A stretch of 64,000 bases of DNA from Verrucomicrobiales bacterium (lineage in GTDB: Bacteria > Verrucomicrobiota > Verrucomicrobiia > Limisphaerales > UBA11358): assembly GCA_028712475.1 (NCBI GenBank), contig JAQTQB010000004.1:67368-131367 (forward strand), read 5' to 3'. The notes below the pieces were generated by a model. The model was not told the origin of the DNA, searched no databases, and saw only the letters and a program-made list of their open reading frames with translations. Positions 35,225-63,329 of the stretch are shown piece by piece; positions within the stretch are counted from its first letter, which is position 1; each line of letters begins with the position of its first letter. Both the position numbers and the translations under genes were made by a program.

Positions 35225-35325
35225 AGGGACTCCAACGACGGAAGATTACTCACGCCCGCCAGTGACTGAAGGGACTCAAGCGACGGAAAGGGGCGCTTCG
35301 TTTTGGTCGTTCGAGTCCTTGAAGT
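35225..35325. repeat. Hairpin-forming repeat built from gggact/aaggac-type units, downstream flank of the four-helix-bundle gene
   Basis: gggactccaacgacggaag .. gggactcaagcgacggaaagg .. cgttttggtcgttcgagtccttgaagtc. A related element in the same orientation lies at about 35895..35975 (ggacggaagggacttcaaggacggcgagggactgcgag..cgctttggtcgttattgtccctttagtcc). Confidence 0.65.
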
Positions 35326-35993
35326 CATTTCCACCCTCCTTGCTGGGCGCGGGCCGCGAGGCGGGCGCGGGTCATGCGTTCGCGCAGGCCGCCTTCTTTC
35401 AGGAAATCCTGTTCCAGGCGGCGGAGTTGCTGGTCGAGCAGGTAGTTGGTCACCTTGATCAAACCCACAATCACATTGGCGCAGATGGCGGGGTCGGGAT
35501 GCTCGATGCCTTTCTTGAAGGTGTCGTAATTTGCGCCGGGCGTGCGGTTGAGCCGGCGCAAGCGCTGGGCGTAGCGGTGGTCGGGCGTCCATTCCTCGAT
35601 TTTGCGGGCGCGCATGAAATCGCGGTAATCTTCGAGCAATTCCTCCTGGCTGGCGCGGGCCACGTTGGTGAGCTTGAGTTCGGTTTCCTTGGATGTGCCG
35701 CTGGCCTGGCTGCCTTCGAGGATGTTTTGTTTGCCGGAGCGCGCGGCCTGCACCATCTGGTCGTGGGTGCGGGACTTTTTGTCAACAAACCGGTCACAAA
35801 AATACTGCGTGGCCTGAAACACCACCAAGGCTTTCTGGTAGGAGAGGAGTTCCTGGTAGCCGCCGTGAGCGGGGATGAAGCCATCAGCATCATCCGGAGG
35901 AAAGGACGGAAGGGACTTCAAGGACGGCGAGGGACTGCGAGTTGCCGTCGTCGCTTTGGTCGTTATTGTCCCTTTAGTCCTTGGCTCAGGCAT
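35325..35993 (-). CDS. Four-helix-bundle protein with suffix domain (23S rRNA intervening-sequence-protein-like family)
   Basis: Core ..[80 protein letters not shown].. matches this family. The first 30 or so codons (..[22 protein letters not shown]) are read through a repeat element, so the true start is uncertain. It overlaps the hsdM stop by 8 nt. Confidence 0.75.
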
Positions 35994-43437: not shown

Positions 43438-44752
43438 TTTCGACCTGTTAATCCGCGGCGCGCAGCCGTTTCCTGAAATCGGAATTGCTGATGGAAAGAT
43501 TGCTTCATTCAGTGGCGGTTCATCGCGCGAAGATATTGACGCAACCGGCCTGCACGTTTTCCCCGGCGTGATTGATTCGCACGTCCACTTCAACGAACCG
43601 GGCCGCACGGATTGGGAAGGCATCGAAACCGGGGCGCGCGCGCTCGCGGCGGGCGGCGGCACTTTGTTCTTCGACATGCCGCTTAACGCGTATCCGCCGA
43701 CTTGTGACGCGGAGAGTTTTGATTTGAAGCTGGCGGCGGCGCAAAAAAAATCCATCACCGACTTCGCGTTCTGGGGCGGACTTGTGCCGGGCAATCTCGA
43801 CAAGCTCGAAGAACTCTCGGCGCGCGGAGTCATCGGTTTTAAGGCGTTCATGGCGAACAGCGGCATTGAGGATTTTTCGTGCGTAAATGACGCGACGCTG
43901 CGAGAAGGCATGAAGCGCGCGGCGAAATTAAAATTGCCGGTCGCCGTCCACGCCGAGAGTGAAACGCTCACCAGCAAACTGGCGCGGGAGAAAATTGCCG
44001 CCGGGAAAACCTCCATCCGCGATTACCTCGACTCTCGGCCTGTCGCCGCTGAACTTGATGCCATTCGCCGCGCGATTGGCCTGGCGGGTGAAACGGGCTG
44101 CGCACTGCATGTCGTCCACGTCAGCAGCGGCGAGGGCGTGGCGCTGATCGCCGCCGCAAAAAAATCCGGCGTGGATGTTTCGTGCGAAACGTGTCCGCAC
44201 TATCTCGTCCTGACCGAAGACGACATGGAGAAACTTGGCGCTGTTGCCAAGTGCGCTCCGCCGTTGCGCCCGGCCAGCGTTCAAGAAAGTCTCTGGCGGC
44301 AATTGCTCGCGGGAAATATCACGACGATTGGCTCGGATCATTCGCCGTCGCCGCCGGAATTGAAAACGGACCAAAGCTTTTTCAAGGTGTGGGGCGGTAT
44401 TTCAGGCGTGCAGCACACATTGCCGCTGTTGCTGACAGAAGGACGTGTCAATCGCGGCGCGGCACTTTCGCTCATCACGGATTTGCTTTCTGCCAGCGTC
44501 GCCCGCCGTTTCAAGATTCCGAACAAGGGACAAATCGCCTTCGGGTTTGATGCCGACTTTGCGCTCGTGGATTTGAACCAGACGTTCACAGTGGCGAAGG
44601 ACGGTTTATTTTATCGTCACCGGCAAAGCCCCTACGTTGGCCGCGCGTTGACAGGGCGCGTGGTTCAGACCATTCTTCGCGGACAAACGGTTTTCAAGGA
44701 CGGCAGGATTGTTTCGACACCGGCTGGCCGCCTCGTAAAACCGAAACCCTAA
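43430..44752 (+). CDS. allB: Allantoinase
   Basis: MPDFDLLIRG..PGVIDSHVHFNEPGRTDWEGIETGARALAAGGGTLFFDMPLN..FKAFM..HAE..HVVHVSS..CETCPHYL..GSDHSP: cyclic amidohydrolase motifs of the allantoinase type. It has an 8-nt overlap with allC. Confidence 0.9.
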   Translation: MPDFDLLIRGAQPFPEIGIADGKIASFSGGSSREDIDATGLHVFPGVIDSHVHFNEPGRTDWEGIETGARALAAGGGTLFFDMPLNAYPPTCDAESFDLKLAAAQKKSITDFAFWGGLVPGNLDKLEELSARGVIGFKAFMANSGIEDFSCVNDATLREGMKRAAKLKLPVAVHAESETLTSKLAREKIAAGKTSIRDYLDSRPVAAELDAIRRAIGLAGETGCALHVVHVSSGEGVALIAAAKKSGVDVSCETCPHYLVLTEDDMEKLGAVAKCAPPLRPASVQESLWRQLLAGNITTIGSDHSPSPPELKTDQSFFKVWGGISGVQHTLPLLLTEGRVNRGAALSLITDLLSASVARRFKIPNKGQIAFGFDADFALVDLNQTFTVAKDGLFYRHRQSPYVGRALTGRVVQTILRGQTVFKDGRIVSTPAGRLVKPKP

Positions 44753-49289: not shown

Positions 49290-51455
49290 TTATTTGTCCG
49301 GCGGTGCGGGCGCAGGTGATTTCGACTCCGATTCCATCTGCGCCTGAAGCCCGCGATGATCCACCTTGCCGGTGCCGAGTTTCGGAATCTCTTTCACCGC
49401 CTTGATCTCGCGCGGCACGGAGAGATTCGTCAATCCCCTGGCTTTGATGGCGTCGCGGATTTCGTCCAGGGTCAGCTTCGGCTCGTTCGTCACGGCGATG
49501 AGCATTTCCCCTTTGTTTTCATCGGGACGCGTGACGACGGCGATCTGGCAGCGCAGACCGTATTGCGGAAACGCCCCGGCCAGCGCGTCTTCCACCGCCG
49601 TAAGGCTCACCATCTCGCCGCTCACCTTGGCGAAGCGTTTCATCCGCCCGCGGATGTGCAGATAGCCTTCGGCATCCACGCTCACGATGTCGCCGGTGTC
49701 ATACCATCCGCCGAGGGCCAGGAATTTTGCGTTCGCGTCGGCGTTCAAGTAGCCTTTCATCACGTTCGGCCCGCGCACGAAGAGGCGTCCGCCTTCGTCC
49801 ACGCCTTCGACTTTTTCCAGCTTGCATTCCATGCCGGGCAGGAGCCGGCCCACGGAGCCATTGCGCGGCTCGAGCGGCGTGTTGACACTCACGCACGGGG
49901 CGCATTCCGTCGCGCCATAACCTTCGAGGATGCGCACGCCGTATTTTTGCGACCACGCGAGCGCGGTGGCTTCCTGCAATTTCTCGGCGGCGGAAAAAAG
50001 ATACCGCAGGCTGCGAAAGTCATAGGGATGGGCCTTGCGGGCGTAGCCGTTCAGGAAGGTGTTCGTGCTGATGAACACCGTGCAATCACGGTCGTAAAAC
50101 ACCGATGGCACCACGCGATAATGCAGGGGGGAAGGATAAAGGAAGACATAGATGCCGCGCACCAGCGGCACAAACGTCCCCACGGTGAGGCCAAAGCTGT
50201 GAAAGAGCGGGAGACAGTTGAAGAGGCGGTCGCGGTCGGTGAAATCCGTGACGGCCAGCATCTGGCGGATGTTGGCGAGGATGTTTCCGTGAGTCAGTTC
50301 AACGCCCTTGGGCACGCCTTCGGAGCCGCTTGTGAAAACAATCACGGCGGCGGAGCTGGCAGATGGAGGATGGAGGATGGAGGATGGAAGATGGAGAATA
50401 TGCCGGAGCAGCGTGAGGAATTTCCGGGGACTGCTTACGCCAGCTTGCGCGTCTTCGAGATAGATCACGCTGACGCCCGCTTTGATAAAATCGTCCACGT
50501 TGAGCCGGGCGCGTTCGAGAAAGGCGCGCGAAGTGATGATGTGTTTCAGTCCGGCGAGTTCCACGCACGCCAGCATGGTGGGCATGCCCGAGGAAAAGTT
50601 CAGCATGGCGGGCACTTTGCCCAGCCGCCACAAGGCGAGGATGACCACCGGCGTGGCGTTGACATTGGGCAACAACAGGCCAATGCGTCCGCCACCCGCA
50701 ACGGTGCCGCGCAACGCGTGCGCCAGCACATCCGCCCCCACCATCAGTTTCCGACAGGTCAGCTTTTGCAGCGTCGCGTCTTCGAGAATGATTTGGCCCG
50801 GGCGTTCGCGTGCGGTCTCCGCCACCGCAGAGAGGACATTCTGCGCGCCGAAATTCATCTCGACCTCGAACTGCTGCCGCACCATCTGGTCGCGGAGCCA
50901 GATGGTCAGCCGCGACCGTGCGCGGCCGGTGCTGACTTCCCCCAGCTCGGGCGCGGCCAGCGCGGCGCTGAAATGCGCGGTCACTTTGGGGAAACATTTT
51001 TTCCAGCCCGGATTGGGTGAATACGGCAGGCGTTCGGCGCCGCGCAAGTAGGCCGTGATGACGCGCGCCTTGGTTTTGAAAATCAAAAATCCCGTGCCAT
51101 CAAAAAGCTTCATCAAGTCACCCGTGCGAGAGAGGCGGCCTTCGGCAAAAAGCACGAGCCGCCCGCCGCCTTTAAGAAACTCCGCCATGCGCTTCACTGC
51201 ATAAGGCGAACCGGGATCAACGGGCAGGGTGTAATGGTTGATCATCAATTTACGATGCAGCCAGCTCGTCTGCGCCGCGATGCTCGAGGTGACGAACTTC
51301 CAATCATCCTCCAGGCAGACCCAGAGAAACAGCCAGTCAAACCAGGAGCAGTGATTGGGGATCAACAGCACCGGGCCGGGTGTTTTCAGCGCGTCCAGGT
51401 CATAAGCCCGAAAGCGAAACAAAACCTGGAGCAAAAAGCGGAAGCAAGTTTTCAT
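49290..51455 (-). CDS. aas: Bifunctional acyltransferase / acyl-ACP (AMP-dependent) synthetase, Aas-like
   Basis: The N-terminal LPLAT has LIPNHCSWFDWLFL and FAEGRLSRTG. The C-terminal adenylation domain has IVFTSGSEGVPKGVELTH, EGYGATE, YDTGD and GTGKVDHR. The heptamer-array-derived LPSSILHPPS precedes the AMP motif. ATG at 51455; a TTG at 51494 is also in frame. Confidence 0.88.
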   Translation of the reverse strand: MKTCFRFLLQVLFRFRAYDLDALKTPGPVLLIPNHCSWFDWLFLWVCLEDDWKFVTSSIAAQTSWLHRKLMINHYTLPVDPGSPYAVKRMAEFLKGGGRLVLFAEGRLSRTGDLMKLFDGTGFLIFKTKARVITAYLRGAERLPYSPNPGWKKCFPKVTAHFSAALAAPELGEVSTGRARSRLTIWLRDQMVRQQFEVEMNFGAQNVLSAVAETARERPGQIILEDATLQKLTCRKLMVGADVLAHALRGTVAGGGRIGLLLPNVNATPVVILALWRLGKVPAMLNFSSGMPTMLACVELAGLKHIITSRAFLERARLNVDDFIKAGVSVIYLEDAQAGVSSPRKFLTLLRHILHLPSSILHPPSASSAAVIVFTSGSEGVPKGVELTHGNILANIRQMLAVTDFTDRDRLFNCLPLFHSFGLTVGTFVPLVRGIYVFLYPSPLHYRVVPSVFYDRDCTVFISTNTFLNGYARKAHPYDFRSLRYLFSAAEKLQEATALAWSQKYGVRILEGYGATECAPCVSVNTPLEPRNGSVGRLLPGMECKLEKVEGVDEGGRLFVRGPNVMKGYLNADANAKFLALGGWYDTGDIVSVDAEGYLHIRGRMKRFAKVSGEMVSLTAVEDALAGAFPQYGLRCQIAVVTRPDENKGEMLIAVTNEPKLTLDEIRDAIKARGLTNLSVPREIKAVKEIPKLGTGKVDHRGLQAQMESESKSPAPAPPDK
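50362..50396. repeat. Heptanucleotide tandem array (5 units) inside aas
   Basis: gatggag gatggag gatggag gatggaa gatggag. Confidence 0.85.
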
Positions 51456-51973: not shown

Positions 51974-53035
51974 ATGAGGAATGGCAGGCCGATGCTGCAA
52001 TTCCATTCGTTATTTGTCATTCGTCATTCTGGACGCTACGCTTTGCCTGTGACCGATTCCATCTTCCAATCACTTGCCGCCGCCGCGCGTGGCGGCGAAT
52101 CCGTCGCGCTCGGCATCATCACCGCCGTGAAAGGGTCGAGTCCGCAGAAGCTCGGCGCGAAGGCGCTGTTTTATCCCGACCGGAAAATCAAAGGCACGCT
52201 CGGCGGCGGCTGTCTGGAGGCCGAGGCGCAGCGGCTCGCCCTCAATTCGCTCAAGACCGGCAAGCCGGAATCTTTTGAACTCGTCCTTGACCACGATTTC
52301 GGCTGGGACGACGGCCTGATCTGCGGCGGGAAAGTTTTGGGCGTTATTTTGCCCAACGCGCAGCGGCTCGGCGAAAAATTCTGGAGTGAACTGGCCGAAC
52401 GCCACGCAGCTAAAATTTGGGGTGTAAGAAAGGATTTTTCAATCGCCTCCCCCGGCCCGGCTCTCAAACCTCAAACCTCAAACCTCAACCCTTCCGACTG
52501 GCTCTACACCGAAACCATCACGCCGTCGTGCGCGTTGTGGATAGCCGGTTCCGGCCACATCGCCCAGGCCGTCGCGCCGCTGGCCTTGCAACTGGATTTC
52601 GCCGTCACGATTTTTGACGACCGTCCTGAACTGGCGAACCACGAAATATTTCCGCGCGATGTTTCCATCCACGTCGGCAACTGGGGCGATCTGTGCGCCG
52701 CTCCGCTTCCCAATGTGCCGGCGTTTGGCCTCATCGTCACACGTGGACACAAGCACGACGCGCTCGTGCTGGAGACGTGGATTCACAGGCCGTTCCGATT
52801 CCTCGGCATGATCGGCAGCACCCGCAAGGCGCGGACGATTGCCGAGCACTTCGTGAAAAAGCAGATTGCCACCGCCGAAGAAGTCGCGCGCGTCGCTTGT
52901 CCGGTCGGAATAAAAATCCGCTCGCAAAGCGTGATGGAAATCGCCGTGGACATCCTGGCGCAATACATAGACAAGCGGGCGGAACTGGTGAGCGAGAAGC
53001 AAGCTGCGGCGGCGGGAAAAATTGAATTGGTCTAG
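51974..53035 (+). CDS. xdhC: XdhC/CoxI-family molybdenum-cofactor insertion accessory protein
   Basis: ..GESVALGIITAVKGSSPQKLGAKALFYPDRKIKGTLGGGCLEAEA.. and the C-terminal Rossmann-like part LWIAGSGHIAQAVAPLA..IVTRGHKHD. The start is uncertain because the first codons run through a heptamer array. A second array is in frame at 52463..52490. Confidence 0.88.
   Translation: MRNGRPMLQFHSLFVIRHSGRYALPVTDSIFQSLAAAARGGESVALGIITAVKGSSPQKLGAKALFYPDRKIKGTLGGGCLEAEAQRLALNSLKTGKPESFELVLDHDFGWDDGLICGGKVLGVILPNAQRLGEKFWSELAERHAAKIWGVRKDFSIASPGPALKPQTSNLNPSDWLYTETITPSCALWIAGSGHIAQAVAPLALQLDFAVTIFDDRPELANHEIFPRDVSIHVGNWGDLCAAPLPNVPAFGLIVTRGHKHDALVLETWIHRPFRFLGMIGSTRKARTIAEHFVKKQIATAEEVARVACPVGIKIRSQSVMEIAVDILAQYIDKRAELVSEKQAAAAGKIELV
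52004..52031. repeat. Heptanucleotide tandem array (4 units) at the 5' end of xdhC
   Basis: cattcgt tatttgt cattcgt cattctg. Confidence 0.75.
52463..52490. repeat. Heptanucleotide tandem array (4 units) inside xdhC
   Basis: ctcaaac ctcaaac ctcaaac ctcaacc, the reverse complement of the gtttgag/gttgagg type seen at 18110..18137. It is translated as LKPQTSNLNP. Confidence 0.85.
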
Positions 53036-56000: not shown

Positions 56001-56978
56001 GCCGCCCATCGTGGCGCGATTACGGATCTGCCGCGAGCCGAACACGCAGAGCATGTCGCCCAGCACGGGAAATTCTTCGCCGAGCCGGTCTTCAATTTCC
56101 GTGAGCGTGACCGCAGCGCCGATGTGCCATTCGCTGGCGGCGCGGCGGATTTTGTTCAAATCCGAGACGGCTTCCACGGAAATCAGCGTGGTGAATTTTT
56201 TGTAGCGCTTGGTGATGTCGAGTCCCATTTCCGTGGCCCCGGCAATGATGCGCGCCTCGGGAAATTTCTTCAGCAGGACGAGAAGTTTGTGCAGCGTGGC
56301 AGGGCGGAAAAAATTTTCCCCGTTAAATTCGTATGCGGCCGCGCCGAGCTTCGCGTCCGATTTTTTCAGGCGGTCGGCAAACATATCTTCGTAGGAGCCG
56401 ACGTCAGGAGGCTCTGACTGTTTCCCATTTCCGCTTTTGATTTGAGCCTCGTCACCTCGTCTCCTACAGGAAAAAGCTTCCACCGCCGCGTCACGGATTG
56501 AACGATACCCGGTGCAGCGGCAGAGATTGCCGGCAAGTTGTTCGTCGAGATCGCCGTGCGTGTGAAGGTCGTCGCGATAGTAGCCCTCGAACATCGAGCA
56601 GATGAAGCCGGGCGTGCAATAGCCGCATTGCGAGCCGTGAAGTTCGACCATGGCGTGCTGCACCGGATGTAATCCCGAAAGCGCGGAGTGCGGAGTGCGG
56701 AGTGTGGAATTACAAACACCTTCAGCGCTTACCACCTCGCGGCCCGCGAGCAGGCAGACGGGCATGAGGCAACTGTTCACCGCGCGATAAGTTGGCTTGC
56801 CGTTCGCGCCGCGCTCGACAATGGCGACGGAGCACGCGCCGCAATCGCCTTCGGCACAGCCTTCCTTCGATCCGGTGAAGCCGGAACTGCGGAGAAATTC
56901 AAGCAGCGTCGTGTTGGGAGAAGTGTTCTCAACGCAAACCGGCTGGCCGTTCAAAATGAATTCAAATGCGCCGGACAT
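53037..56978 (-). CDS. Xanthine dehydrogenase, single polypeptide (2Fe-2S + FAD + molybdopterin domains fused)
   Basis: 1313 aa. Motifs: GCAEGDCGACSV and HGSQCGYCTPGF (the two 2Fe-2S centres), the FAD domain (..IIAGATEMG..GGNLAIASPIGD..) and the Mo domain (..GGGFGGKE.., ..FRGFGGPQG.., ..GTEMGQG.., ..KAVGEPP). Three repeat-derived in-frame segments are present. Confidence 0.93.
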   Translation of the reverse strand: MSGAFEFILNGQPVCVENTSPNTTLLEFLRSSGFTGSKEGCAEGDCGACSVAIVERGANGKPTYRAVNSCLMPVCLLAGREVVSAEGVCNSTLRTPHSALSGLHPVQHAMVELHGSQCGYCTPGFICSMFEGYYRDDLHTHGDLDEQLAGNLCRCTGYRSIRDAAVEAFSCRRRGDEAQIKSGNGKQSEPPDVGSYEDMFADRLKKSDAKLGAAAYEFNGENFFRPATLHKLLVLLKKFPEARIIAGATEMGLDITKRYKKFTTLISVEAVSDLNKIRRAASEWHIGAAVTLTEIEDRLGEEFPVLGDMLCVFGSRQIRNRATMGGNLAIASPIGDSAPVLLALDARVVLASESGERTLPISDFFISYRKTALQLNEVLKTIIIPRGGAAAGLTRKAEWFKVSKRREMDISTVAGCFVVDLDKQNIVRHVRLAYGGVAAMPARARKTEAALAGKIWSEETIQRALPVLRTEFTPISDVRGTAEYRSGLIASLLGKFFAGESERSVHAASPLECRSGLKSALQAQPHESAHKHVTGEAMYVDDQTSGMLEVWPVCSPHARAKIIKCDATAARQMPGIKAVLFAEDIPGENDVGTKHDEPLLASREVLFHSQLVALVVGDSQETCRAAAEKVVVEYEPLAPILTLRDAVAKGSFHNEPNFIRRGDSVKGLSAAPLVIEGEFELGGQEHFYLETQAAHATRGEDGSVFVVSSTQHPSEVQQVISHVLHLPANKVVVQVPRMGGGFGGKETQAATPAALAALATHHTGKPVRVRFNRDQDMALTGHRHPFLAKFNVGFDKDGLLQAAQVHLTSNGGWSQDLSQAVTDRALFHLDNAYYIPAVEFRGQVAKTNLSSNTAFRGFGGPQGMLVMEEILDRIARRLGLPPEVVRERNLYRGSGETNTTHYGQEIEDNRIQTIWHELKKTSELEKRRKEIADWNARHPHTKRGIAITPVKFGISFTVTHMNQAGAFILIYQDGTVQLNHGGTEMGQGLHTNVAMIAAQTLGVKLENIRVMPTSTDKVPNTSATAASAGTDLNGAAVKNACEILRARLTPAALELVAAEVTRLKSKAENESAQSLLTPAAAEDLVFADGFSFHRTLPDVKISFADVVKKAYLSRVSLLATGYYATPGIHWDRAAGHGKPFHYFANGAAVTEVEVDGFTGMHCVLRVDILHDVGDSVNEGVNRGQIEGGFVQGMGWLTAEELKWDDQGVLLTHSPDTYKIPSIGDTPQIFKVTLLKNATQKSVVHGSKAVGEPPLMLAISVREAIRDAVAAFGSGKGEVALASPATCEAIWMAIQEQRDVDSKESPKPDLVLAK
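53738..53813. repeat. Palindromic repeat (family C) inside xdh, copy 1
   Basis: gcagcagccggcgtaaggaggctc .. tttccgcttttgatttgagcctcgtcacctcg gctgctac. The 32-mer at 53774..53805 is identical to 56428..56459. It is translated as ..VAAEVTRLKSKAENESAQSLLTPAAA.. Confidence 0.8.
56392..56467. repeat. Palindromic repeat (family C) inside xdh, copy 2
   Basis: gtaggagccgacgtcaggaggctc + spacer + gagcctcgtcacctcgtctcctac. It shares the exact 32-mer with copy 1 but sits in a different codon phase (offset 2654 nt, which is 2 mod 3). It is translated as ..RRGDEAQIKSGNGKQSEPPDVGSY.. Confidence 0.85.
56683..56710. repeat. Heptanucleotide tandem array (4 units) inside xdh
   Basis: gcggagt gcggagt gcggagt gtggaat. 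It is translated on the minus strand as ..NSTLRTPHSALSG.. between the two Fe-S motifs. Confidence 0.85.
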
Positions 56979-59874: not shown

Positions 59875-59963
59875 GCTCCAACATCCAAGTTTCGGAGAAG
59901 CTCCAAACTTCAACGTCCAATCGGAAGCGCGCACCGCCAGGTTTGGAGCTTGGAACTTGGAGC
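59875..59963. repeat. Inverted pair of heptamer arrays (Ntccaa units vs ttggagc units) in the intergenic region
   Basis: Left: gctccaa catccaa .. gctccaa acttcaa cgtccaa. Right: ttggagc ttggaac ttggagc. gaagctccaaac and gtttggagctt can pair as a long hairpin just upstream of the mmsA ATG. Confidence 0.75.
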
Positions 59964-59971
59964 TTTTTAAC

Positions 59972-61468
59972 ATGGCTATGCTCGAACCTTGTCCCAATTT
60001 CATCGGCGGCGAATGGATTGAATCCAAAACCGCGCGCACGCCGGTTTTCAATCCCTCCATCGGCGAAGTGATTTCTGAATGTCCGGTCGGAAATGTCGCT
60101 GATGCAAATGCCGCAGTCGAGGCCGCGCACGCCGCATTTCCCGCGTGGATGGAAACGCCGCCCGTCGAACGCGCGCGGATTCTTGGCCGCTTCAAATTTT
60201 TGATGGAGGATAATTTTGAGGATATTGTCCGCAGCAACACCCGCGAGCACGGCAAGACGCTGGTGGAATCGCGCGGTGATGTGAAGCGCGGCATGGAAGT
60301 CATCGAGTTCGCGCTCGGTGTGCCGTCGTTGATGATGGGTGAGGTGCTGGAGAACATCGCGCGCGGCATTGATTGCGAGGCGATCCGCCAGCCGCTCGGC
60401 GTTTGCACCGGCATCACGCCGTTCAATTTTCCCGCGATGGTGCCGCTCTGGATGTATCCCATCGCCATCGCGTGCGGCAACACATTCGTCCTCAAGCCGA
60501 GCGAGAAAGTTCCGCTCACCGCCCTCAAGATCGCGAAGCTGCTCGAAAAGGCCGGTCTGCCGAAAGGCGTGCTGAACATCGTCCACGGCGGACGCGAAGT
60601 CGTGGACGCATTGCTCACGCATCCGAAAGTGAAGGCGATTTCGTTCGTCGGCTCGACGCCGATTGCGCGTTACATTTACGAAACCGGCACGAAGCACGGC
60701 AAACGCGTGCAATCCAACGGCGGCGCGAAGAATTACGTCATCATCATGCCCGACGCCGACGTGGAAAACTCCACGCGCGGTGTCATCGAAGCGGCGTTCG
60801 GCTGTGCGGGCGAGCGCTGCATGGCCGGTTCAACGGCTGTCGTCGTTGGCGGTGCGGAAAAATCTGTCTTGCCCACTCTCATTGAAGCCACGCGCAAAAT
60901 CAAAGTCGGCCCGACCGACCGCGAAGCGCAACCGGACATGGGCGCGGTCATCACCCGCCAGCATCGCGACCGCGTTCTGGAATTGATTGAAGCCGGCGTG
61001 AAGGAAGGCGCAAAGATTCCCGCCGACGGGCGCGGCGTGAAAGTCAATGAAGCACCGAATGGTTTCTACGTCGGCGCAACAATTCTCGATCACGTCCAAA
61101 CCGGCATGATCGTGGCGAAAGAGGAAATTTTTGGCCCGGTGCTGAATGTGATGCACATGGAAGATTTGGACGCGGCGATTGAACTAGCAAATAAATCGGC
61201 CTACGGCAATGGCGCCTCCATCTTTACCCGCTCCGGCAAGGCGGCACGCGAGTTTAAGCATCGCGTCAACTGCGGCATGGTCGGCATTAACATCGGCGTG
61301 CCCGCCTCGATGGCCTGGTTTCCATTCAACGGCTGGAACGAATCGTTCTTCGGCGACCTGCACATGCAAGGGCGCGAAGGCGTGCAATTTTTCACGCAGC
61401 AGAAAGTCACCACCAGCCGCTGGTTCAGCTACGGCGAGGGGGACATCTGGCATACGGAAAATAAGTGA
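59972..61468 (+). CDS. mmsA: CoA-acylating methylmalonate/malonate-semialdehyde dehydrogenase
   Basis: ..FIGGEW..FNPS.GEVI.., ..ITPFNFPAMVPLWM..ACGNTFVLKPSE.., ..GAKN.., ..FGCAGERCMA.. (catalytic Cys context) and the C-terminal ..GINIGVP..FPFNGW..SFFGDLH.. ATG at 59972. Confidence 0.92.
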   Translation: MAMLEPCPNFIGGEWIESKTARTPVFNPSIGEVISECPVGNVADANAAVEAAHAAFPAWMETPPVERARILGRFKFLMEDNFEDIVRSNTREHGKTLVESRGDVKRGMEVIEFALGVPSLMMGEVLENIARGIDCEAIRQPLGVCTGITPFNFPAMVPLWMYPIAIACGNTFVLKPSEKVPLTALKIAKLLEKAGLPKGVLNIVHGGREVVDALLTHPKVKAISFVGSTPIARYIYETGTKHGKRVQSNGGAKNYVIIMPDADVENSTRGVIEAAFGCAGERCMAGSTAVVVGGAEKSVLPTLIEATRKIKVGPTDREAQPDMGAVITRQHRDRVLELIEAGVKEGAKIPADGRGVKVNEAPNGFYVGATILDHVQTGMIVAKEEIFGPVLNVMHMEDLDAAIELANKSAYGNGASIFTRSGKAAREFKHRVNCGMVGINIGVPASMAWFPFNGWNESFFGDLHMQGREGVQFFTQQKVTTSRWFSYGEGDIWHTENK

Positions 61469-61492
61469 CGAGCGATATGTGATGAGTGACGA
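61465..61492. repeat. Heptanucleotide array (4 units), left flank of the four-helix-bundle gene
   Basis: gtgacga gcgatat gtgatga gtgacga. It is the inverted counterpart of 61925..61952. Confidence 0.8.
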
Positions 61493-61508
61493 GTTTCCAA
61501 ATCGGACT

Positions 61509-61922
61509 ATGAACGCGAATGGCAAGGCGCAGAGTTATCACGACTTGCTGGTTTGGCAGAAAGGCATTGCGCTCGCAAAGATGATTTACAAGATCACCGG
61601 CGAATTTCCGTCCGAAGAAAAGTTTGGGCTGATTTCACAAATGCGCCGGGCGGCGGTTTCCGTTCCCTCAAACATCGCCGAAGGCCAGGCACGCCATACA
61701 ACCGGCGAGTTCGTTCTATTTATTTCCCATGCCGGGGGTTCGCTTGCCGAACTAGATACGCAATTGACTCTCGCAACCGAACTCAATCTTTTACCCGCTG
61801 TTCAGGCCAAACCCTGCGCTGACTCGATTTCTGAACCGCGCCGGATGCTAAATGGTCTTCGCCGTGTTGTGAACGGGCAGAAGCCCGCAGCACCCAACTC
61901 CAAACTTGCAGCTCGTCGCTAA
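61509..61922 (+). CDS. Four-helix-bundle protein (23S rRNA intervening-sequence-protein family, TIGR02436-like)
   Basis: ..SYHDLLVWQKGIALAKMIYKITGEFPSEEKFGLISQMRRAAVSVPSNIAEGQARHTTGEFVLFISHAGGSLAELDTQL.. is the canonical pattern. ATG at 61509; an ATG at 61482 inside the heptamer array is also in frame. Confidence 0.9.
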   Translation: MNANGKAQSYHDLLVWQKGIALAKMIYKITGEFPSEEKFGLISQMRRAAVSVPSNIAEGQARHTTGEFVLFISHAGGSLAELDTQLTLATELNLLPAVQAKPCADSISEPRRMLNGLRRVVNGQKPAAPNSKLAARR

Positions 61923-61924
61923 AA

Positions 61925-61952
61925 CTCATCACTTATCACACATCACATGTCA
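61925..61952. repeat. Heptanucleotide array (4 units), right flank of the four-helix-bundle gene; overlaps the dihydropyrimidinase start codon
   Basis: ctcatca cttatca cacatca catgtca. Its reverse complement (tgacatg tgatgtg tgataag tgatgag) mirrors 61465..61492. Confidence 0.8.
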
Positions 61953-63329
61953 CTAGTAATTAAAAACGGCGAAATCGTTACCGCGAGCGAACGCTACGTC
62001 GCGGACATCTTCTGCGAGAACGAGACCATCACACGCATTGACCGCAGTATCACGCCGCCCAAGGGCGCGGAGGTGATTGATGCGAGAGGCAAGTTCGTTT
62101 TCCCCGGCTTCATTGACCCGCATGTCCATATTTACCTGCCGTTCATGGGCACGTTTTCCAAGGACGATTACATCACCGGCAGTGAGGCCGCGCTGATTGG
62201 CGGCACGACAACTCTGATCGAAATGTGCTGCCCGGCGCGCAAGGACGATGCGTTGGAGAGTTTCGAGCTTTGGATGAAGCAGGCGGTTGGCAAGTCCGCG
62301 TGCGACTTTTCGTTCCACATGGGCGTGACGAAGTTTGATGACAAATCGGAGAAGCAGCTCCGCGAAATCGTGAAGCGCGGCATCAGCTCGTTCAAAATCT
62401 TCCTTGCCTACAAAGGCGCGTTCGGCGTGAATGACACGGAACTGTATCGCACGCTCAAGCTCGCGAAGGAACTTGGCGTCATCGTCACCGCGCATTGCGA
62501 GAACGAAACGCTTGTCAGCGAACGCTGCAAGGAATTGATCGCCGCCGGCAAGACCGGTCCGGGCCAGCATCACGAAAGCCGCCCGCCCGCCGTCGAAGCC
62601 GAGGGCGTGCATCACTTGATGACGTTTGCCGAACTCACCGGCGCGGCGACTTACATCGTCCACTTGAGTTGCAAGGAAGCGCTCGATCAGGCCATCGCTG
62701 CCCGCCAACGCGGTGTGCGCGTCACTGTCGAAACGCTCATCCAATATCTCACGCTCGACAAAACCTACGCGGAAAAACCGAAGTTCGAGGGCGCGAAATT
62801 CGTGATGTCGCCGCCGTTGCGCGACAAAAGTAACCAGCCGGTTCTCTGGAACGGCCTGCGCGACGGGCTGATTCAAACCGTCGCCACGGATCACTGCCCG
62901 TTCGATTTTAAGACCCAGAAGCCGATGGGAAAAAATGATTTCACCAAGATTCCCAACGGCATCCCGTCACTGGAGGAACGCATCAACCTGCTTTACACCT
63001 ACGGCGTGAAGACGGGCAAGATTGACCTGCACACGTTCGTGAACGTCGCCAGCACGCAGGTCGCAAAGACCTTCGATCTGTTTCCGCGCAAAGGCACGAT
63101 CCAGCCCGGCGCGGATGCCGACCTTGTGGTGTTCGATCCGGATTATCGCGGGAAAATTTCCGTGAAGACGCAGCACATGAACGTGGATTACAGCGCGTTT
63201 GAAGGCTGGAAAATCGAAGGCCGTCCCAGCGTCGTCACCGTGCGCGGACAAGTCGCCGTTCGTGATGGCAAATTCGTCGGCAAGCACAGCCACGGGAAAT
63301 TCCTCCAGCGCAAGCCGAGTCATTTTTAA
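61947..63329 (+). CDS. Dihydropyrimidinase (D-hydantoinase)
   Basis: ..PGFIDPHVHIYLPFMGT..GGTTT.., FKIFLAYKG (carboxylated Lys context), ..VTAHCEN.., ..YIVHLSC.., ..VATDHCPF.. 460 aa. Confidence 0.93.
   Translation: MSLVIKNGEIVTASERYVADIFCENETITRIDRSITPPKGAEVIDARGKFVFPGFIDPHVHIYLPFMGTFSKDDYITGSEAALIGGTTTLIEMCCPARKDDALESFELWMKQAVGKSACDFSFHMGVTKFDDKSEKQLREIVKRGISSFKIFLAYKGAFGVNDTELYRTLKLAKELGVIVTAHCENETLVSERCKELIAAGKTGPGQHHESRPPAVEAEGVHHLMTFAELTGAATYIVHLSCKEALDQAIAARQRGVRVTVETLIQYLTLDKTYAEKPKFEGAKFVMSPPLRDKSNQPVLWNGLRDGLIQTVATDHCPFDFKTQKPMGKNDFTKIPNGIPSLEERINLLYTYGVKTGKIDLHTFVNVASTQVAKTFDLFPRKGTIQPGADADLVVFDPDYRGKISVKTQHMNVDYSAFEGWKIEGRPSVVTVRGQVAVRDGKFVGKHSHGKFLQRKPSHF

Follow-up and report, generated by a model that had tools for sequence, protein, structure and literature searches.

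What is a gene of the 23S rRNA intervening-sequence (IVS) protein family doing between two protein genes of a catabolic operon, and why do inverted arrays of heptamers bracket it? The locus lies in a 64,000-nt stretch of a Verrucomicrobiales bacterium (assembly GCA_028712475.1, contig JAQTQB010000004.1, positions 67,368 to 131,367 of the forward strand), which we call the window. Here, at the junction of the methylmalonate-semialdehyde dehydrogenase gene mmsA and the dihydropyrimidinase gene dht, a 137-aa open reading frame (ORF) is enclosed by two complementary arms. On balance, we think that this insert is probably, if far from certainly, an IVS-type cassette in an mRNA. Its arms would be the cognate sites of an Avd-like oligomer and would pair in the transcript, and cleavage or melting of the paired arms would make the insert harmless.

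The cassette between mmsA and dht

The arrays and their coordinates read exactly as a sequence-only reading of this DNA had given them. The 5' arm (61464..61496, plus strand), delimited by repeat finder, duplex energy and pair probabilities, consists of four AGTGAYN-family heptamers (gtgacga, gcgatat, gtgatga and gtgacga at 61465-61492) and an inner tail AGTTT. The 3' arm (61922..61954, plus strand, from the repeat finder) carries four inverted heptamers, ctcatca, cttatca, cacatca and catgtca, at 61925-61952. According to the repeat finder, the arms are 33 nt each and 27/33 (82%) complementary, with 425 nt between them. Alternative pairings of the arms, with the register shifted by one unit, also exist.

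Both neighbouring genes reach into the arms, at the places proposed by that reading. The gene mmsA (59957..61468, plus strand; TIGR01722, 641 bits, cut-off 448.5) encodes a CoA-acylating methylmalonate-semialdehyde dehydrogenase and ends with the TGA at 61466-61468, within the first heptamer of the 5' arm. The dihydropyrimidinase (D-hydantoinase) gene dht (61947..63329, plus strand; TIGR02033, 552 bits, cut-off 393) starts with the ATG at 61947-61949, inside the last heptamer of the 3' arm, whose terminal unit CATGTCACT holds this ATG and codons 2-3. Thus mmsA takes its stop codon, and dht its start codon, from the arms. The small gene (61509..61922, plus strand) starts at ATG 61509 (MNANGKAQSYHDL...), as judged by ortholog comparison, and the whole 137-aa ORF is located in the loop. 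Its stop TAA (61920-61922) adjoins the 3' arm. No promoter- or terminator-like sites above chance were found inside the cassette. Matches resembling GTGATGAGTGA at window positions 44468 and 44806 proved to be plain coding sequence with no arrays.

We scored arm pairing as the best ungapped inverted match between the flanks, with match +1 and mismatch -1.5. The mmsA-dht locus scores 18, a value reached by 0/1499 random same-geometry window pairs of the genome, and 12 of these control pairs (0.8%) score at least 13. The arm-arm RNA duplex is predicted at -37.0 kcal/mol (z = -8.4 against shuffling of the 3' arm), and its pairs have probabilities near 1.0 whether the 521-nt cassette or a 1.4-kb context is folded, so that the long stem proposed from the letters is borne out by the predicted folding. 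Since this duplex is exceptional whereas the fold energy of the whole 521-nt cassette is not (z = -1.73), the signal sits in the arms. The stem is predicted to be a thermodynamically good substrate of RNase III, and the RNase III gene rnc is present in the genome (C9:188698-189081).

The encoded four-helix-bundle protein

The 137-aa protein matches PF05635 over profile positions 2-106 of 106 (E 2.5e-34, 118.1 bits, cut-off 33.8) and TIGR02436 with 108.6 bits (cut-off 24). Both matches agree with its earlier assignment to the four-helix-bundle proteins of the 23S IVS family. The conserved motif GxxRxxxSxxxNxxE, which is quoted for PF05635 proteins (PMC3936711), is present and reads GLISQMRRAAVSVPSNIAEG. 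The closest solved relative is 2GSC (XCC0516; E 3.6e-23), an entry with 5 chains, and homology to it suggests a four-helix-bundle fold assembled into an oligomeric barrel. Matches to Avd-like profiles are weak (bAvd PF22296, E 1.1e-4; NF033474, 30.2 bits, cut-off 80). No catalytic domain is recognisable in the protein, whose profile matches are limited to PF05635 and bAvd-like families, and the cassette holds no nuclease, recombinase, reverse transcriptase or transposase gene.

The layout is a rule for the family

The genome (3.4 Mb, 29 contigs, 98% complete) contains 14 PF05635 matches, and 12 of them have inverted flanking arrays. Family copies lacking inverted flanks, which the sequence-only reading had named as evidence that would speak against its stem-loop cassette, are thus the exception here. 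The period of the flanking arrays is 7 in nearly all of the 12 armed loci and 8 in one. Every locus has its own unit, for example GTGCGGA, CATCCAA or TGAATGA, and one pair of arms, four GATTGCC facing four GGCAATC, is a perfect inverted match. Across the genus (41 genomes), 83/102 family loci score at least 13 and 44 score at least 18; among cross-phylum homologs, 65 of the 77 usable ones have arms. The layout is the rule for the family in this genome and genus.

The placement of the arms relative to the neighbouring genes also recurs. Among the 12 armed cassettes of this genome, 10 have the stop codon of the upstream gene at -15..+8 nt from the outer edge of the 5' arm, and 8 have the next ATG at -8..+17 nt from that of the 3' arm. 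Over a set of 136 armed cassettes, the upstream stop is found at -15..+10 nt from the outer arm edge in 89/125, and the downstream start at -10..+20 nt in 88/127. The small gene points the same way as callable flanking coding sequence by 74:6. In addition, the 5' arm has more G than C in 70/83 genus-set and 64/65 subfamily-set cassettes (134/148 together); as the repeat is inverted, this bias is a property of the hairpin and not of the gene strand. In the AGTGAYN subfamily, the 5' arm has stops in all three frames in 37/65 cassettes, and the 3' arm has none in 40/65. Seven is 1 modulo 3, so that within three units a TGA appears in each of the frames, as was pointed out earlier for TAACTGA repeats (PMC4679880).

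Two loci of other build were noticed. A PF05635 gene at G000:C25:20527-20844 has CTCAAC-type arrays on both sides that are direct, not inverted (direct match 37 nt, score 24.5; inverted score 8.5; locus L001). The window itself holds a second family member at 35325-35993 on the minus strand. This is a 'four helix bundle suffix domain' protein of 222 aa (TIGR04258, 75 bits; TIGR02436, 24.6 bits). Its gene is flanked by inverted tracts of about 9-nt period, GTCCTTGAAGTCCCTTCC / GGAAATGACTTCAAGGAC.

The repeat unit follows the protein subfamily

We scanned species-representative genomes with the 146-aa translation of 61482-61919, that is, the protein and nine upstream residues. Relatives at 50-75% identity are found in Verrucomicrobiota, Acidobacteriota, Chloroflexota and Planctomycetota and in one metagenome-assembled genome (MAG) of Methylomirabilota. 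In 63 homologs from five phyla, the unit is AGTG(A/G)(C/T)N, with A1 and G2 in 63/63, T3 in 55/63 and G4 in 59/63; this consensus uses the best rotation of each unit, a choice that inflates the agreement somewhat. Only 4.8% of the locus pairs among these homologs show flank homology. In the genus set, which covers all subfamilies, most units differ from this one by 3-4 mismatches, and only 3/80 are within 1.

The relation was then measured on within-genus pairs at non-homologous sites. The mean unit distance is 1.37 where the proteins are at least 65% identical, with 63% of pairs within 1 mismatch. It rises to 2.68 (25%) at 50-65% identity, 3.36 (1.9%) at 35-50% and 3.40 (1%) below 35%. As unit distance tracks protein identity at non-homologous sites, gene and arms behave as one unit. 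It is the sequence of the arms, and not their pairing alone, that is constrained along with the protein.

An old cassette in a junction with turnover

The operon around the cassette also holds PreA, a carbamoylase-family amidase and an NCS1 transporter, which together identify a reductive pyrimidine-catabolism cluster. In relatives, the mmsA-dht junction varies greatly. Two congener species have it empty, with the stop, about 6 nt and the ATG. In two other congeners, gene-less hairpins of 93 nt and 99 nt, with units CAGAAT and CACAGAT, fill it, and a 184-nt inverted-repeat element without heptamers occupies the junction of one congener. One congener holds the same cassette, with a protein 80% identical and arms nearly identical. 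In congener G032 (L017), the junction is filled by a long four-helix-bundle suffix-domain gene, a homolog of the 222-aa form in the window. In a genome from another family, a VapBC-like toxin-antitoxin pair of 705 nt is found there; this pair and the 184-nt element are the fillings of L016 (G040) and L019 (G016). The junction thus takes several kinds of small insert.

A further congener, G031, carries a gene of a different PF05635 subfamily between AATGACN-type arms. We considered a swap of cargo inside conserved arms and rejected it, because these arms match those of their own subfamily at C9:538382 of this genome. The mmsA-dht junction is a hot spot of turnover that has been filled independently several times.

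On the other hand, the cassette described here recurs in the same mmsA-dht junction in MAGs of Opitutales and Chthoniobacterales. Six homologs of the scan lie directly 5' of dht (L122, L123 Lacunisphaera, L126, L131 Chthoniobacterales, L133 Oleiharenicola and L129). In five of them mmsA is directly upstream too, and L129 begins at a contig end. As to whether relatives hold the gene here without arrays, which had been named as a second line of counter-evidence, L023, L122, L123, L126, L131, L133 and L129 all have arrays. The string ATGTCACT is identical in 8/8 cassette-bearing orthologs, and in 8/8 dht starts inside the terminal unit as ...CACATGTCACT. Because of this start inside the unit, the serine codon 2 of dht is TCA; it is AGC or AGT in 6/9 relatives without this cassette.

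Between cassette-bearing lineages, identity is still 80-100% (mean 88%) for the 3' arms; for the 5' arms, compared in four lineages, it is 76-85%. The small gene shows a proportion of nonsynonymous differences (pN) of 0.10-0.23 where that of synonymous differences (pS) is saturated at 0.69-0.82, and the ratio of the corrected rates (dN/dS) is about 0.06 in the one lineage pair that could be corrected. Arms that are still similar, together with low pN where pS is saturated, indicate purifying selection on both the protein and the arms. The cassette is old and inherited with the operon, and is not a recent insertion here. The sequence-only reading had called the cassette mobile. For the class, this is supported by the empty or differently filled junctions of congeners and by the co-divergence of gene and arms at unrelated sites. 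For this copy as a recent insert it does not hold, given the same junction in other orders and the saturated synonymous sites.

One orthologous site records a rearrangement of the loop itself. The gene is inverted between unchanged arms in L089 (G028)/L085 (G030) versus L100 (G003)/L106 (G007), with flanks 93-95% identical over about 600 nt. Recombination in or at the arms flipped the loop at this site during species divergence. This is the only true gene inversion; L094/L097 and L076/L077 are other rearrangements. We also dropped the use of pairs without flank homology as proof of transposition, as some of them are the same site with swapped flanks.

Heptamer arrays across the genome

A period-7 scan (at least 3 units, at most 1 mismatch) finds about 175 arrays in the 3.4-Mb genome, and a shuffled contig gives none. 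The arrays use just 57 canonical units, among them the GATTGCG family (20 arrays), AGGATGG (11) and AACATCC (9). Gene-less hairpins account for about 44 arrays, and about 100 lack an inverted partner. The 162 free arrays, to which no PF05635 gene is attached, favour the units of the 12 resident cassettes: 32% have a unit identical to the consensus of one of them, and 65% differ from such a unit by one mismatch at most. The control, sets of 12 foreign cassette units from the genus, gives 5% exact (maximum 11%) and 22% within one mismatch (maximum 33%).

The share of solo arrays in read-through frames is like that of random positions (62/104 versus 58%). Three of them lie in the window, in-frame in inter-domain linkers, at 50361-50395, 52462-52492 and 56680-56708. 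They are of the types GGATGGA, CCTCAAA and AGTGCGG, and their hosts are AMP-ligase-like, XdhC-like and xanthine-dehydrogenase Fe-S/Mo subunit genes. One congener has the same tract in the xanthine-dehydrogenase linker (STLRTPHSALS), two lack it, and others have a different or longer one.

Pairs of inverted arrays of one unit type, 600-2200 nt apart, were examined as cassettes with other cargo, and this idea was rejected, as their contents are ordinary host genes. Such wide pairs stand at C10:32420-33081, C28:61860-62573, C9:259643-260930 and elsewhere, and the genes within them include a recR-like gene, a LuxR-type response regulator, a glycosyltransferase and an LptF/G-like permease. Host genes can therefore become bracketed by matching arrays in successive junctions. 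We also notice an extended array of about 27 TCCAACG units at G000:C25:24854-25044, where the usual arrays have 3-5 units. A gene-less hairpin lies just 5' of rnc (C9:188540-188637), with 27-nt arms of CAACATT / AATGTTG and a 45-nt loop. In Escherichia coli, rnc is autoregulated through RNase III cleavage of a stem in its leader.

Comparison with known systems

The 23S rRNA IVSs of Coxiella burnetii and Leptospira, whose ORF encodes S23p, share the PF05635 family with our cassette. They share its build as well, with the ORF in the loop of a terminal stem of about 28-33 bp and 3-4 tandem heptamers just 5' of the ORF. The Coxiella IVS has a 28-bp stem with GACAGAT repeated 3-4 times, and RNase III cuts mid-stem at the first heptamer (PMC4990558). 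The IVS-like topology recognised from the letters, a long terminal stem of heptamers with an ORF in its loop, matches this description. An IVS is tolerated since the ends of the host RNA are brought back together. In contrast to the IVSs, the host RNA here is an operon mRNA, and the site lies between protein genes rather than in helix 9, 25 or 45 of 23S rRNA. The arms overlap and supply the stop and start codons, and the ORF is under strong purifying selection and is not decaying. The 23S rRNA gene of this genome has no IVS (2866 nt versus a model of 2925 positions).

Heptamer repeats have been reported repeatedly as simple sequence repeats (SSRs): TAACTGA in Beggiatoaceae, Cyanobacteria and Bacteroidetes (PMC4679880), GGGAATC of Xanthomonas and GGGGAYT of Nostoc, over-represented in some bacteria (PMC4692102), and fourfold heptanucleotide elements in Geobacter metallireducens (PMC2700814). 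Like the arrays here, these families mostly have about 4 units, stand at stop/start junctions and sometimes inside genes, include units that stop three frames, show a patchy cross-phylum spread and have no known mechanism. The papers on Xanthomonas and Nostoc, Geobacter and Beggiatoaceae mention no link to a protein family, whereas here inverted pairs surround a PF05635 gene and the unit follows its subfamily.

Repetitive extragenic palindromic sequences (REPs), their paired form (REPINs) and the associated RAYT genes offer a second parallel. As here, a gene is flanked by repeats that are dispersed through the genome as gene-less hairpins and single arrays, with several gene/repeat types per genome. 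RAYTs, however, are HUH Y1 transposases and REPs are imperfect palindromes, while the cassette has a small four-helix bundle without recognisable catalytic domain and tandem heptamers. A third parallel is the Avd protein (bAvd) of diversity-generating retroelements (DGRs). It belongs to a homologous fold family and assembles into a barrel, pentameric and of positive charge, that binds structured RNA adjacent to its gene; within the DGR complex, it is a stem-loop RNA that the pentamer binds (10.1101/2023.10.23.563531). Unlike a DGR, the locus has no template or variable repeat, and NF033474 is far below its cut-off. Retro-mobility through a DGR-like reverse transcriptase was rejected, because the 98%-complete genome has no RVT_1 match. 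PF05635 genes are also known in cas loci and in rRNA insertions of the candidate phyla radiation. In the literature combining the family names with heptamer or repeat terms, we found no description of operon-junction cassettes.

A proposed mechanism and its rivals

In the IVS-type reading, the arrays would be putative recognition sites of the encoded oligomeric protein, by homology to Avd and 2GSC. In the operon transcript, the arms would pair into a stem of about 33 bp and loop out the ORF, and the base of this stem would set the UGA of mmsA opposite the AUG/UCA of dht. By analogy with the Coxiella IVS, the insert may be tolerated by RNase III cutting the stem. Alternatively, the terminating ribosome may melt the stem and free the start of dht. 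New copies and gene-less arrays could arise from a host-dependent DNA process guided by the protein. A bolder extension seems to us possible rather than probable: each PF05635 subfamily would be a sequence-specific reader of its own heptamer and, with the help of host enzymes, would both maintain and spread its arrays as solo tracts (including the in-frame tracts inside genes), gene-less hairpins and cassettes.

Several observations weigh against the IVS-type reading. A sense-RNA stem under selection predicts arm mismatches richer in G.U than in A.C. No such enrichment is present in the genus set (69 G.U versus 109 A.C, 148 transversions) or in the subfamily set (52 versus 51, 105 transversions). 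The antisense duplex at the mmsA-dht locus is stronger than the sense duplex (-43 versus -37 kcal/mol). The Coxiella IVS ORF is apparently untranslated (PMC4990558). No target-site duplication, enzyme or recent movement was seen at the cassette, duplications being unreadable from the available empty sites; these have a different mmsA C-terminus (WHK* versus WHTENK*), so that the exact pre-insertion sequence cannot be read either. Related cassettes are, moreover, not independent, and z-scores and ratios across them overstate significance. Without a G.U excess and with the stronger antisense duplex, complementarity may be kept at the DNA level and not by selection on the sense RNA. The mismatch spectrum thus gives no positive support for RNase III cleavage. 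It is compatible with cleavage, since imperfect stems are cut, and fits DNA-level maintenance equally well. We do not take the A.C excess of the genus set as a sign of antisense RNA, as it vanishes in the subfamily set.

A first rival, which we hold to be rather unlikely, is a REPIN/RAYT-like element acting at the DNA level. The arrays would be DNA sites, in duplex or in hairpin or cruciform form, spread and homogenised by recombination or repair. The protein would be a DNA-binding guide and the RNA stem an unprocessed by-product. Besides the missing wobble signature and the stronger antisense duplex, this explanation would account for the long-lasting mirror order of the arms. When the units of one arm are permuted and the register is chosen anew, the summed score falls from 1945 to 1733 (z = 9.8), with 59 cassettes exceeding the permuted mean and 28 under it; a first permutation result of z = 18 was inflated by best-register choice and was discarded. 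The order of unit variants in one arm is therefore partly mirrored in the other, which needs either selection on pairing or gene conversion in the hairpin register. The 172 period-7 arrays with just 57 units, which are mostly solo or gene-less and match resident cassettes, the in-frame tracts that are polymorphic among congeners, and the gene inverted between unchanged arms in different species point in the same direction. However, the 137-aa protein has no recognisable catalytic domain, and the 74:6 co-direction and the exact placement of stop and start suggest a constraint on transcript or translation. Moreover, the only relatives characterised by experiment act on RNA, through IVS cleavage and Avd-RNA binding.

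The facing of the stop UGA and the dht AUG/UCA at the stem base would also suit a domesticated operon regulator. In this case, the stem would sequester the dht start and couple dht translation to mmsA termination, the protein would be an RNA-binding regulator, and nothing would be selfish or mobile here. In agreement with this idea, the arrangement stays with the operon in several verrucomicrobial orders, protein and arms are under purifying selection, and dht has no Shine-Dalgarno-like leader, with or without the cassette. We nevertheless judge it improbable: congeners lack the cassette or fill this junction with unrelated inserts, its subfamily and arms stand at many unrelated junctions in five phyla, and 12 further copies of the family, 11 with inverted arms, lie at unrelated junctions of this genome. 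As the same cassette type stands at unrelated junctions, any role concerns junctions in general and not pyrimidine catabolism in particular. Chance or plain replication slippage, by which simple-sequence repeats would just happen to flank a small gene, could appeal to the known over-representation of heptamer SSRs in some bacteria (PMC4692102). It is extremely unlikely in view of the control pairs, none of which reaches the locus score, of the 81-86% of family genes that are armed, of arms conserved where synonymous sites are saturated, and of the subfamily-specific unit.

What the finding means

The function of the IVS ORF has been open since 1993, and the repeated reports of a heptamer excess in bacteria came with no mechanism. 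The two questions are linked by this locus and its relatives. The match between repeat type and protein type across phyla is a clue to what PF05635 proteins act on, and gives a 'protein of unknown function' a concrete hypothesis, namely that it binds heptamer arrays. The notion of an IVS would widen from an rRNA insert to a general class of inserts tolerated in bacterial operon junctions. If the subfamilies are indeed readers of their own heptamers, the family would be a widespread selfish repeat system without a nuclease of its own, which would explain both the heptamer excess in many phyla and the origin of the ORF-bearing rRNA IVSs.

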